Assembly: GCA_028713575.1 (NCBI GenBank)
Contig: JAQTOB010000014.1
Coordinates: 1 to 9,451 of the forward strand
Source of the DNA: Patescibacteria group bacterium
GTDB lineage: Bacteria > Patescibacteriota > Patescibacteriia > UBA2591 > UBA6264
Reading direction: 5' to 3'
DNA: 9,451 bases
Positions 20 through 6,118 of this stretch are shown one piece after another. A program made the translations under genes and the position numbers. The notes beneath the pieces were generated by a model. That model was given only the letters and a program-made list of their open reading frames with translations, was not told the DNA's origin and searched no databases. Every line of letters begins with the position of its first letter. Position 1 is the first letter of the stretch.

Positions 20-96
20 TGGCTCCGGAGGGCGGACTCGAACCGCCGACACGCTGGTTAACAGCCAGCTGCTCTGACCAACTGAGCTACTCCGGA
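20..96 (-). tRNA. tRNA-Asn (anticodon GTT), 77 nt, CCA encoded
   Basis: The reverse complement folds as a full cloverleaf: TCCGGAG-TA-GCTC-AGTTGGTCA-GAGC-A-GCTGG-CTGTTAA-CCAGC-GTGTC-GGCGG-TTCGAGT-CCGCC-CTCCGGA-G-CCA. The anticodon loop is CTGTTAA, giving GTT. Confidence 0.9.
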
Positions 97-105
97 ATAT
101 TGTTA

Positions 106-351
106 CTATTTTATATTGTTAATATCTAACCACTTTCTTCCTTGACCTGTTTTTAAAAACTTTTCTCTCTTCATTGCCTCCTTTTTGGTTTCAAATAACT
201 CTTTATAGATTAAAATTAATGGCTTATTTTGTTTGGTCCATTTATTACATCCTTTGTTGTGCTCTTTTAATCTTATCTCTGGATCTTTAGATGTATAACC
301 AACGTATCTTTTGGAATTTTTTAAACTTTTTAAAATGTATGTAAAATGCAT
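106..351 (-). CDS. Minimal GIY-YIG (URI-domain, COG2827/UPF0213-like) nuclease, 81 aa
   Basis: ATG at 351 and TAG at 108-106. Motifs are FTYIL...YVGYT (GIY/YIG), RLKEH, and EAMKREKFLKTGQGRKWL (conserved Glu/Lys C-terminal helix). It is a paralog of ORF 5455..5718. The stop codon lies 9 nt from the tRNA-Asn 5' end. Confidence 0.8.
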   Translation of the reverse strand: MHFTYILKSLKNSKRYVGYTSKDPEIRLKEHNKGCNKWTKQNKPLILIYKELFETKKEAMKREKFLKTGQGRKWLDINNIK

Positions 352-366
352 ATTAATTATATATTG

Positions 367-396
367 CCAGCCAGAGGCTGGTCCGCCTTCGGCGGA
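367..396. repeat. Two abutting GC-rich hairpins (ccagcc-aga-ggctgg at 367-381; tccgcc-ttc-ggcgga at 382-396)
   Basis: Each has a perfect 6-bp GC-rich stem and a 3-nt loop, with no spacer between them. They lie directly between the tRNA-Asn 5' fragment and the GIY-YIG ORF. No U-tract follows on the minus strand, so they do not look like terminators. Confidence 0.75.
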
Positions 397-412
397 AGCT
401 ACTCCGGAATAT
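397..412 (-). repeat. 16-nt direct repeat of 85..100, made of 4 nt of leader (ATAT) plus nt 1-12 of tRNA-Asn (TCCGGAGTAGCT)
   Basis: agctactccggaatat occurs identically at 85-100 and 397-412. The flanking bases differ on both sides (84 g vs 396 a; 101 t vs 413 g). Confidence 0.9.
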
Positions 413-5360: not shown

Positions 5361-5450
5361 TGGCGGAGAGGGCGGGATTCGAACCCGCGATACCGTTTCC
5401 GGTATACGTGCTTTCCAGGCACGCCCTTTCGGCCGCTCAGGCACCTCTCC
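5361..5450 (-). tRNA. tRNA-Ser (anticodon GGA), 90 nt, long variable arm, CCA encoded
   Basis: The reverse complement is GGAGAGG-TG-CCTGAGCGGCCGAAAGG-G-CGTGC-CTGGAAA-GCACG-TATACCGGAAACGGTATC-GCGGG-TTCGAAT-CCCGC-CCTCTCC-G-CCA. It has the class II variable arm expected for Ser. Confidence 0.9.
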
Positions 5451-5735
5451 AAAATTACTTTTTGCCAATTTTTTCAAAAAGAACTGATAATTGTTGTTTT
5501 AAAAATCTTTTACCGTCGCTGGTTTTTAAAAACTTTTCACGGCGCAAAGCATCCTGCTTTAAAAAATATGCCTCATAGTGTATTAACTTCAATGGCCTTC
5601 GTTTAATTGTAGACCTAACTTTTCCTTCGCAATGTTCTCTCAGCCGCCTTTTTAAATTTTTTGTGAAGCCTGTGTAGATTTGATTGTTGTTCAGTAATAA
5701 AATATAAATATAATACATTTTATTATGTAAATTAT
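5451..5735 (-). mobile_element. Putative tRNA-Ser-associated GIY-YIG cassette between the truncated and intact tRNA-Ser copies
   Basis: The ORF plus short AT-rich flanks (17 nt upstream, 4 nt downstream) is the only sequence separating tRNA-Ser nt 1-76 (upstream copy) from the intact gene. Mobility is inferred. Confidence 0.4.
5455..5718 (-). CDS. Minimal GIY-YIG (URI-domain, COG2827/UPF0213-like) nuclease, 87 aa
   Basis: ATG at 5718 and TAA at 5457-5455. Motifs are YYIYIL...YTGFT, RLREH and [18 protein letters not shown]. Hand alignment gives roughly 35-40 percent identity to ORF 106..351. The stop codon lies only 4 nt (TTTT) from tRNA-Ser position 1. Confidence 0.8.
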
Positions 5736-5740
5736 GGATT

Positions 5741-5827
5741 CGCCCCGAGATGAACTCGGGGCGCTACGGGTTAATCCCGTGTTAGCGCCCCGAGATGAAC
5801 TCGGGGCGCTACGGGTTAATCCCGTAG
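5741..5827. repeat. Tandem 45/42-nt repeat, each unit carrying two hairpins (cgccccgag-atgaa-ctcggggcg and ctacggg-ttaat-cccgtag), inserted in the T-loop of the truncated tRNA-Ser
   Basis: Unit 1 is 5741-5785 and unit 2 is 5786-5827. They differ only by 3 extra nt (cccgtGTTag vs cccgtag). The stems are 9 bp and 7 bp and perfect. GC is about 64 percent against an AT-rich background. Confidence 0.9.
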
Positions 5828-5882
5828 CGAACCCGCGATACCGTTTCCGGTATACGTGCTTTCCAGGCACGCCCTTTCGGCC

Positions 5883-5922
5883 CCTGCCTGCCGGCAGGCA
5901 GGCCTGCCTGCCGGCAGGCAGG
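5883..5922. repeat. Two tandem copies of the 20-nt perfect palindrome cctgcctgccggcaggcagg, inserted in the D-loop of the truncated tRNA-Ser
   Basis: 5883-5902 and 5903-5922 are identical. Each is its own reverse complement and 80 percent GC. The insertion lies exactly between tRNA nt 16 and 17 by comparison with the intact gene. Confidence 0.92.
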
Positions 5923-5942
5923 GCTCAGGCACCTCTCCACAC

Positions 5943-5957
5943 CTCGCTTTAAGCGAG
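5943..5957. other. Small hairpin (ctcgc-tttaa-gcgag) 4 nt upstream of the truncated tRNA-Ser copy
   Basis: A 5-bp stem seen directly. Function unknown; it could be a leader structure or a transcript 5' end. Confidence 0.4.
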
Positions 5958-5960
5958 TAA

Positions 5961-5988
5961 ATTCTAAACTCTAAGCTCCAAATTCCAA
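5961..5988 (-). promoter_or_regulatory. Weak promoter candidate (TTGGAA-16 nt-TAGAAT) upstream of the tRNA-Ser fragment
   Basis: On the minus strand the -35 is at 5988-5983 and the -10 at 5966-5961. Both hexamers fall inside repeated AAATTCYAAA motifs. The alternative TTGCCT-16-TATAAT at 6090-6063 is also possible. Specificity is low in AT-rich DNA. Confidence 0.25.
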
Positions 5989-6095
5989 ATAATATCTAAA
6001 TCCAAAATTCTAAATAAAAAACTAAAATATAAAAACCAGAATTAGAATAAAATTATAAAAATATTATAGCAAAATAATAAACAAAGGCAAGAAAA

Positions 6096-6118
6096 AGGGC
6101 CCCATAATACGGGGCCTT
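6096..6118 (-). terminator. Rho-independent terminator (bidirectional) after ORF 6126..6386
   Basis: The ggcccc-ataatac-ggggcc stem is at 6098-6103/6111-6116. T-runs follow on both strands (minus: CTTTTTC; plus: cTaTTTTTT). It starts 8 nt past the stop codon. Confidence 0.7.

Follow-up and report, generated by a model that had tools for sequence, protein, structure and literature searches.

To our knowledge, no function has been established for the bacterial UPF0213 proteins, the mini GIY-YIG nucleases to which YhbQ belongs; structure-specific cleavage is the property of the eukaryotic Slx1, acting with its partner Slx4, and not of these bacterial proteins. GIY-YIG genes also occur beside tRNA genes in phage T4, and GIY-YIG enzymes such as SegB are reported to leave 2-nt 3' overhangs (PMC2330249). 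A third point of comparison is provided by the double-hairpin elements (DHEs) of fungal mitochondria, which are short, presumably mobile GC-rich units of two adjacent stem-loops found in AT-rich genomes and conserved across species (PMC10085805). Here we analyse a locus in a 9,451-nt stretch of DNA, hereafter the window (positions 1 to 9,451 of contig JAQTOB010000014.1, from a Patescibacteria group bacterium), in which the gene of an 87-aa GIY-YIG nuclease lies between an intact tRNA-Ser(GGA) gene and a partial second copy of that tRNA interrupted by GC-rich hairpins. Sequence comparisons suggest, with a probability that we place at about 0.6, that this locus is a selfish cassette of ~0.4 kb, composed of the mini GIY-YIG gene, the partial tRNA copy and a double-hairpin module (H), and that H is a cis element acting at the DNA level by splitting or marking the cut site. 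The descriptive part of this account is held with high confidence, and the proposed mechanism, in which H is a shield and a binding site, with moderate confidence.

A cassette of a mini GIY-YIG gene, a partial tRNA and a double hairpin

All genes in the window are encoded on the minus strand (Table 1). The second copy of tRNA-Ser (5736-5938) comprises tRNA positions 1 to ~62 and is identical to the intact gene outside its inserts, the sole mismatch in the 58-nt repeat between fragment and intact gene being the palindrome junction. It ends past AATCC, so that the 3' T-stem strand is short of its last 3 bases and the 3' acceptor strand is missing altogether; a previous reading of the same DNA from its letters alone (the sequence-only reading), according to which every tRNA stem was left intact, was mistaken on this point. 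That reading had also overlooked the downstream intact tRNA, the architecture of partial duplication and the mirror form described below. Only 4 nt separate the stop codon of the GIY-YIG gene from the intact tRNA-Ser, and the leaders preceding the start codon are short and unconserved between cassettes.

Two inserts interrupt the tRNA copy. In the D-loop, two palindromes (5883-5902 and 5903-5922) are flanked by GAGC on one side and GGCC on the other, and inspection of the sequence revealed no target duplication at this insert. The T-loop insert (5741-5827, 87 nt) lies between GGTTCG and AATCC and is formed by two module copies repeated at a period of 45 nt, the module containing a 7-bp hairpin (CTACGGG-ATTAA-CCCGTAG) and a 9-bp hairpin (CGCCCCGAG-TTCAT-CTCGGGGCG). 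The coordinates and composition originally proposed for the inserts, namely twice a 20-nt perfect palindrome and twice a 42-45-nt unit with 9-bp and 7-bp hairpins, agree with the sequence, and their structure goes beyond chance: the DNA fold of 5719-5945 (minus strand) reached -82.9 kcal/mol against -41.8 +/- 3.4 for shuffled sequences (z = -12.2). When the whole window was scanned, GC-rich hairpins with stems of at least 8 pairs were restricted to the inserts of the Ser locus, and stems of at least 6 pairs added the two hairpins of a tRNA-Asn locus (367-381 and 382-396) and two short chance palindromes within coding regions. The earlier view that the inserts are not terminators was upheld, given that no T-run follows any of them and that the scan places intrinsic terminators only at 6096-6118. 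Searching the inserts against Rfam 15 yielded no family at the gathering score, the sub-threshold matches (5737-5924) being microRNA-like and due to chance.

The 87-aa protein, like an 81-aa protein encoded at the Asn locus, matches PF01541 above the gathering cut-off (E = 8.4e-17 and 9.4e-18, respectively). In these proteins of 81-87 aa the catalytic domain covers residues 1-68, and neither a separate DNA-binding domain nor any other Pfam domain was detected in the two sequences. Y5, Y15, G17, R25, H29 and E49 are invariant in 30 aligned sequences; by analogy with I-TevI, we take them to be the catalytic residues. Relatives of the 87-aa protein in the PDB are the UPF0213 proteins EF2693 and BH0048 (1ywl and 1zg2). 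A total of 249 homologs of the nuclease were found. Proteins with 60-70% identity across phyla come from metagenome-assembled genomes (MAGs) of Patescibacteria, Lentisphaerota, Kiritimatiellota and Cloacimonadota, where 10 or more tRNA species are their neighbours. Searches for a defence-system or phage origin with PADLOC and PHROGs returned nothing meaningful, and viral contigs contained one distant relative. Elsewhere, gene callers add spurious N-terminal extensions in which the hairpins are translated (e.g. '...SDDVANP' in P0028, P0052 and P0066).

The genomic context of these genes was surveyed by a protein-alignment scan with one genome per species, which identified 80 loci in Patescibacteria and in MAGs of Lentisphaerota/Victivallales, Kiritimatiellota, Verrucomicrobiota and Cloacimonadota; the counts given here refer to 84 open reading frames (ORFs) in 79 loci. 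Under a strict rule for H (at least 14 of 16 Watson-Crick pairs), the module accompanies 62 of the 84 ORFs, an intact tRNA on the same strand adjoins 68, and at least one of these two features is present at 81. The possibility that homologous loci lack hairpins, which would have told against the sequence-only reading, is thus contradicted. The tRNAs used are Ser (GGA, CGA, GCT, TGA), Gln, Arg, Tyr, Lys, Pro, Leu, Asn, Thr, Gly, Cys and Glu.

In the common layout, represented by 36 clean cases, the 5' part of a tRNA (position 1 to the break) leads into H, after which the tRNA resumes for 5-8 bases; a short leader then precedes the ORF, and the intact tRNA begins 0-40 nt beyond the ORF. A mirror layout was found in at least 12 loci (e.g. 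L061, L062, L063 and L065; ~1380-1900), where the intact tRNA comes first and is followed by a spacer, the ORF, GGTTCG, H and the 3' part of the tRNA as far as CCA and the native terminator; in L065 the ORF runs into H and ends at the TGA within the loop of the second hairpin (GAATGA). The tRNA position of H is the same in both layouts, and H lies inside the redundant copy, on the side facing the ORF. Indeed, H is always in the partial copy, and the target-specific tRNA tail on its far side measures 5-8 nt in 30 of 37 measured loci. The break falls mostly after CG (with a slash marking the break, TTCG/AATCC in the T-loop and CTCG/AAAAC in the anticodon loop of tRNA-Ser(CGA)), with further break points at TTGCG/GACC, TTCG/GGTT and CTCCG/GAGC and, in the D-loop, after GG (AATGG/TAGGA). 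A tRNA intron or split tRNA was rejected, as a complete uninterrupted tRNA adjoins and most partial copies are truncated.

Several observations bear on mobility. One protein cluster can use different tRNAs and both layouts, and a single MAG may hold several cassettes at different tRNAs (L029/L030; L084/L100). Whole units form tandem arrays (two units in L013/L014, three in L031 and three in L087), and their copy number is polymorphic, L015 and L017 from other samples being single-unit alleles of array loci (e.g. L013 versus L015). In 29 of 42 cases the partial copy does not differ from the tRNA next to it. Fragments in L046 and L058 have diverged by 5-8 substitutions, and that of L030 carries a compensatory anticodon-stem pair (A27-T43 versus G27-C43), and therefore derives from a different functional tRNA allele. 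No integrase or recombinase was found in the element, the GIY-YIG gene being the sole ORF between the repeats. A role for the fragment as an RNA decoy or antitoxin is not favoured: the arrays repeat the whole unit including the ORF, and the mirror form has the fragment downstream.

Rearranged loci were also observed. In L024 (1860-1960) a partial tRNA-Ser(GCT) split by a hairpin is found downstream of the intact tRNA instead of adjoining the ORF, which starts right after another intact tRNA; L028 (1860-2040) carries a 76-nt unit, composed of gaggttcg, H and the tRNA 3' end, three times in tandem. In L041 and L048 (~1250-1500) a double-hairpin fragment of tRNA-Thr is followed by the intact tRNA-Thr with no ORF between them, and then by a GIY-YIG ORF and tRNA-Tyr; this could be a relic that has no ORF, or else a compound arrangement within a tRNA cluster. 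Most contigs with these genes are shorter than 2 kb, evidently because the repeats of the cassette break short-read assemblies, and L233 and L234, the two contigs reached through the flanking 131-aa protein in looking for an empty site, end at the tRNA.

Table 1. Features of the tRNA-Ser and tRNA-Asn loci in the window, with the basis of each assignment
Feature	Position	Strand	Basis
Intact tRNA-Asn(GTT)	20-96	-	tRNA search
81-aa GIY-YIG nuclease gene, Asn-type subfamily	106-351	-	Pfam; 43% identical to Ser-type
Asn-type double hairpin: TCCGCC-GAA-GGCGGA (382-396) and CCAGCC-TCT-GGCTGG (367-381)	367-396	-	hairpin scan
12-nt 5' fragment of tRNA-Asn (TCCGGAGTAGCT), copied from the intact gene	397-408	-	repeat search
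Intact tRNA-Ser(GGA), working copy	5361-5450	-	ARAGORN and sequence
87-aa single-domain GIY-YIG nuclease gene (UPF0213/YhbQ-like)	5455-5718	-	Pfam PF01541
AT-rich 17-nt leader from tRNA tail to ATG	5719-5735	-	sequence
AATCC, tRNA positions 58-62 ('b5' tail), resuming past the hairpin module	5736-5740	-	sequence
Double-hairpin module, copy 2 (45 nt; first hairpin with 3 more bases)	5741-5785	-	repeat search, sequence
Double-hairpin module, copy 1 (42 nt), after T-loop G57	5786-5827	-	repeat search, family alignment
tRNA-Ser fragment, 3' part of D-loop to T-loop G57, as in intact gene	5828-5882	-	58-nt repeat, 98%
Two tandem copies of dispersed 20-nt perfect palindrome CCTGCCTGCCGGCAGGCAGG, in D-loop of fragment	5883-5922	.	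repeat search
tRNA-Ser fragment, positions 1-16 (GGAGAGGTGCCTGAGC)	5923-5938	-	sequence
Promoter-like site TTGCCT-16-TGnTATAAT	6063-6090	-	consensus match only

To judge from its match to the consensus, the promoter-like site could produce a single transcript of the fragment, the ORF and the tRNA. Two ORFs that span the GC-rich inserts, of 59 aa (5691-5870, minus strand) and 72 aa (5734-5952, plus strand), are artefacts of the stop-free palindromes. Upstream of the tRNA fragment, positions 5941-6040 contain a low-complexity quasi-repeat (aaattctaaa / aaattccaaa / aaatccaaaattctaaa), with a small palindrome, ctcgctttaagcgag, beside it at 5944-5958.

Conservation, symmetry and specificity of the double hairpin

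The structure of H was examined in an alignment of 29 modules with 4-nt loops, scored on the two-hairpin structure. In the stems 98.5% of cells are paired, changes on both sides occur at 15 of the 16 pairs (80 cells), and the covariation score of 0.516 exceeds that of shuffles (0.174 +/- 0.015; reached in 0 of 500) and of slid partners (at most 0.107). An alternative long-range stem between hairpin 1 and hairpin 2 was rejected, with 80% of cells paired, which equals the shuffle level, and no covariation. The sequence of the stems is free to vary and the loops and the closing GTC/GAC are kept; conservation thus concerns a hairpin in extruded form, with a particular loop, rather than a duplex binding site.

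Such conservation leaves little room for the view that the hairpins are functionless filler left by error-prone repair of nuclease breaks. Palindromes can form by snap-back synthesis, and the exact placement of H at the putative cut site, together with the 2-nt repeat around it, would be expected of repair scars; against this, loops and closing pairs are conserved across phyla, pairing survives 80 double changes and the same module recurs in at least 60 species, which makes this origin highly improbable.

H is symmetric with respect to the two strands. The loop of hairpin 1 (ATYC; ATRAA in the class of the window) is the reverse complement of that of hairpin 2 (GRAT; TTYAT), and a one-strand covariance model scores nearly equally on the opposite strand, e.g. 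76.3 versus 72.6 bits. Mismatches in 43 modules comprise 4 G-T and 4 A-C, and G-U is found in 3 cells compared with 80 double changes. Furthermore, the position of H is set by the tRNA break and not by the ORF, so that it may lie 5' of the ORF or 3' of it, even overlapping its end.

These features bear on a role at the RNA level, in which the hairpins would be structures of the nuclease mRNA (a 5' stabiliser, a processing site or a translational regulator) in a transcript from the tRNA promoter. The covariation of the stems is compatible with such a role, as is the location of H in the layout of the window, 9-55 nt upstream of the ATG and within a probable tRNA-promoter transcript. However, RNA has no reason for strand symmetry, whereas here the loops are reverse complements and both strands score equally; G-U pairs are rare and no commoner than A-C; and H is fixed to the tRNA break, lying 3' of the ORF in at least 12 loci, in one of which (L065) the ORF stops in a hairpin loop. 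We consider a role in RNA rather unlikely, and the 5' stabiliser that had been among the functions first suggested is disfavoured on the same grounds.

H is also essentially specific to these loci. A covariance model of H returned upwards of 100 sites from GIY-YIG loci (265 kb) and none from unrelated metagenome contigs of similar habitats (564 kb); the exact hairpin had no match in the viral collection. The loop class tracks protein clusters, the 5-nt class being confined to the cluster of the window and the clade of L033, L046, L059, L090 and L099, with L029 as one exception within the window's cluster. In modules of the window type (5786-5827) the first hairpin starts with CTAC and ends with GTAG, a CTAC/GTAG-type tetranucleotide being the tag of one superfamily of repetitive extragenic palindromes (REPs; PMC3733652); the likeness is probably coincidental, because other clades carry CCAC...GTGG and similar termini.

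A further regularity concerns the dinucleotide that precedes H, which recurs at the end of H and whose complement stands between the hairpins. Most loci have CG, L038 and L048 have CA/TG and L045 has TG/CA, all three positions shifting together. By analogy with GIY-YIG enzymes such as SegB (PMC2330249), this repeat would fit a 2-nt staggered cut at the insertion point. Taken together, strand symmetry, the lack of wobble bias and a position tied to the tRNA break are the reasons why H is most likely a DNA-level cis element of the cassette, and neither an independent repeat nor an mRNA structure.

Strain variants, the dispersed palindrome and the Asn-type cassettes

Two loci from other samples, L001 and L002, encode a protein identical to that of the window, and in both of them the second D-loop palindrome differs by a C>T change. 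More distant proteins are those of L004 (94% identical), L006 (86%, with a different tRNA-Ser(GGA) sequence) and L013 (85%, beside tRNA-Ser(CGA)). All five loci share the order GGTTCG, CTACGGGAT(T/A)AACCCGTAG, CGCCCCGAGTT(C/T)ATCTCGGGGCG, AATCC, AT-rich leader and ATG. The module is double only in the window and L002, and single in L001, L004, L006 and L013; the tandem pair of the window is a recent strain polymorphism, because L001, which lacks copy 2, is single where the window is double. The tandem pairing emphasised in the sequence-only reading is hence real in the window without being general. Past the GIY-YIG gene, L002 (835-861) has a tRNA copy that bears the D-loop palindrome, whereas L001 (846-900) and the window have a clean tRNA, and the population therefore holds tandem arrays or excised circles of the unit. 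L006 also contains an unoccupied second tRNA-Ser(TGA) with the same GGTTCGAATCC in its T-loop; the T-loop alone therefore does not set occupancy, which is probably determined by the tRNA part that the cassette carries (its homology arms).

Extra solo or duplicated hairpins were observed in the fragments of L048, L071, L097 and L100. Together with the duplication in the window, which involves whole CG-ended units, they could be read as products of a nuclease for which H is the working substrate, i.e. an Slx1-like structure-specific enzyme cutting CG steps beside extruded hairpins and thereby excising or inserting units, or starting transfer or excision of the element. The arrangement CG-hairpin-CG-hairpin-CG with its co-varying dinucleotide, the minimal catalytic domain of a UPF0213 member with no DNA-binding domain, the arrays, and the unit-to-fragment junction of L002, which fits an array or a circle, all speak in favour of this alternative. 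On the other hand, cleavage at H, which is flanked by direct repeats, would be expected to remove the cassette, and H is not dispersed, for which reasons we regard this reading, although the main alternative, as unlikely.

In contrast to H, the D-loop palindrome proved to be dispersed. The exact CCTGCCTGCCGGCAGGCAGG sequence occurs in at least 120 metagenome contigs with GC contents of 0.29-0.71. Among the matches listed, ~10 contigs (~8%) carry it in a tRNA piece beside a GIY-YIG gene, mostly of the Asn type, and a GIY-YIG relative of any kind is encoded on 10 of the 120; the other copies are located in low-complexity intergenic DNA and even within long open frames, with up to 4 per contig (L162). 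It is found in tRNA pieces in L146, L152, L175, L181, L196 and L201, and next to a tRNA in L137, as well as in Ser-type loci of unrelated MAGs (L051, and L052 with one mismatch). These insertions into tRNA pieces are precise and often bracket the D-loop, and none of 6 precise insertions in tRNA fragments showed a target duplication. No transposase of the REP-associated (RAYT) type was seen for the palindrome, although no systematic transposase search was made. Within the lineage of the window's protein it is missing from L004, L006 and L013.

The D-loop insert is thus a generic dispersed palindromic repeat unrelated to H, over-represented in dead tRNA pieces and not specific to them. A sequencing artefact was ruled out for the 20-mer by its interior position in contigs, its varied contexts and its recovery in many independent projects and assemblers. 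Quasi-repetitive intergenic DNA like that at 5941-6040 of the window surrounds many of its copies (e.g. L105, L145, L148 and L128). In L162 (987-2469; contig of 32% GC) four palindromes lie within 1.5 kb, and in L192 (5312-5478) two are part of a longer repeated unit that includes 'gtcatatcgagggaagcaaagcgacgaga'; larger repeats may carry the palindrome or have it as a component.

The hairpins, originally treated as one phenomenon, are accordingly of at least two kinds, the T-loop module being bound to the cassette and the D-loop palindrome dispersed; for the palindrome, dispersal at sites mostly unrelated to tRNAs or GIY-YIG genes is the very outcome that the sequence-only reading had named as refuting it. 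The same distinction applies to the idea that they are independent selfish palindromes, comparable to REPs, miniature inverted-repeat transposable elements (MITEs) or mitochondrial DHEs, which gather in neutral tRNA remnants with no tie to the nuclease. For the D-loop palindrome this holds, and the extra solo and duplicated hairpins, including the duplication in the window, would also be accommodated. As an account of the T-loop module it is very unlikely, in view of the absence of matches in the 564 kb of control DNA, the constant place at the tRNA break in both orientations, the loop class that tracks the protein clade and the possession of its own hairpin pair by each nuclease subfamily.

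This last point derives from the Asn locus of the window. Relatives of its 81-aa protein (L223-L232, 56-76% identical) all lie directly upstream of tRNA-Asn(GTT), and a 5' piece of tRNA-Asn before the ORF is broken between positions 12 and 13 or ~28 and 29 by two 15-nt hairpins, of the types YCMGCC-NNN-GGCKGR and TCCGCC-NNN-GGCGGA in either order, after which 6-9 tRNA bases follow. The same architecture with a hairpin pair of its own argues that a double hairpin is required and matched to the nuclease. The stems of the Asn hairpins (CCAGC/GCTGG and CCGCC/GGCGG) correspond, in swapped order, to the anticodon-stem and T-stem strands of the window's tRNA-Asn, and homologous Asn loci retain the hairpin sequences despite differing tRNA stems (L223); the match may reflect either ancestral derivation or coincidence.

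Proposed mechanism and comparison with known systems

We propose that the partial copy and the intact tRNA would provide tRNA-derived homology arms on both sides of the cassette, by which it could recombine into the same tRNA gene elsewhere, a working tRNA always being regenerated. Spread through homology arms would account for two regularities: the repeat has its start at the tRNA end or a few bases from it, and the intact tRNA is remade in every case. Mirror layouts and arrays might result either from one crossover involving a circular unit or from the repair of a double-strand break. H would sit exactly on the 2-nt staggered cut site of the nuclease (between G57 and A58 in the window), splitting and inactivating the site in the leftover tRNA piece; since a break between direct repeats would delete the cassette, the split site would protect the element. 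H is probably also the structured binding site of the nuclease, itself probably dimeric, as suggested by a structure that is conserved, clade-matched and symmetric. The D-loop palindrome has landed separately in a functionless tRNA piece, as in several other such pieces. Of the functions first suggested for the hairpins, those of nuclease recognition element and of disruptor of the target site fit the anatomy of the T-loop insert and remain the best readings, as candidates only.

Several points weigh against this account. The restored intact tRNA retains the presumed target, which leaves the logic of homing with immunity incomplete, and a mere site disruptor needs no conserved symmetric structure. 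Sequence-specific homing is not assured for a protein with no DNA-binding domain, and no route is given by which the 5' part of a new tRNA would be acquired. Moreover, 22 of the 84 ORFs lack a strict H (some being degenerate, at contig ends or masked), L024, L028 and L041 are rearranged variants, and the counts behind the comparison of G-U with A-C are small.

A bolder version of the account, which we regard as doubtful, would make the cassette a new minimal class of mobile element of ~0.4 kb, in which a bare Slx1-like GIY-YIG domain would be the sole protein and would recognise DNA structure instead of sequence (its own H and the hairpin-forming arms of tRNA genes), cut CG steps and cross phyla through its tRNA arms, perhaps as an excised circle or array, always remaking the intact tRNA; the 20-nt palindrome and the Asn-type hairpins would be non-autonomous passengers that an enzyme of this kind mobilises. 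Leaving these details aside, there is a real chance that the cassette represents a new class of mobile element. No description of a tRNA-associated mini GIY-YIG cassette with hairpins was found in the literature, most subscription journals being outside the coverage of the search, so that this absence is not proof.

If correct, our interpretation would add a very small and very widespread selfish element, common in lineages of Patescibacteria (the candidate phyla radiation, CPR), of the Planctomycetes-Verrucomicrobia-Chlamydiae (PVC) group and of Cloacimonadota, and would supply the first biological context for the large UPF0213/YhbQ family of mini GIY-YIG proteins. A minimal hairpin-recognising nuclease with a defined cognate structure would likewise offer a simple system for studying structure-specific DNA cleavage. 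The element can inhabit essential tRNA genes with neither intron nor integrase, and the cassette explains assembly breaks, spurious ORFs and N-terminal extensions across hairpins.

Among described systems, the cassette shares with homing endonucleases a patchy horizontal spread at a conserved target and a polymorphic copy number. With the T4 Seg genes, such as SegB, the likeness extends to a GIY-YIG gene beside tRNA genes, co-inherited with flanking sequence and moving horizontally in a selfish manner, and the 2-nt 3' staggered cuts of SegB fit the dinucleotide repeat around H (PMC2330249). In contrast to the Seg genes, the protein is here a catalytic domain of ~85 aa alone, with no DNA-binding domain, and the host is a bacterial chromosome instead of a phage, with one distant match in viral contigs. 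The cassette further differs in duplicating part of its target tRNA and in its conserved double hairpin, neither feature being known to us from Seg genes.

Similarly to genomic islands and prophages that integrate into tRNA genes, the cassette inserts in a tRNA gene, carries a tRNA segment, regenerates the intact tRNA and leaves a partial direct repeat; it differs from them in having no integrase or recombinase, in its size of ~0.4 kb, in duplicating either the 5' or the 3' part and in the splitting of the leftover copy by hairpins. H resembles the mitochondrial DHEs as two adjacent GC-rich stem-loops maintained by compensatory change, with no sequence relationship claimed; DHEs are scattered in intergenic regions and rRNA genes, (PMC10085805), whereas H was seen only at junctions of GIY-YIG genes and tRNA fragments. 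SegB, the tRNA islands and the DHEs are the nearest functional analogues, but for each of them at least one defining feature is missing here.

The D-loop palindrome has analogues of its own in REPs (GTAG/CGTC-tagged; PMC3733652) and in the GC clusters of yeast mitochondria, which are also short GC-rich perfect palindromes at many unrelated and mostly intergenic sites. Unlike REPs, an identical 20-mer recurs across contigs of 29-71% GC, implying a very wide host range, and the T-loop module does not resemble REPs. For the nuclease itself, the nearest relatives with solved structures are to be found among the UPF0213 proteins (YhbQ, EF2693 and BH0048), with which it shares a single URI/GIY-YIG domain.

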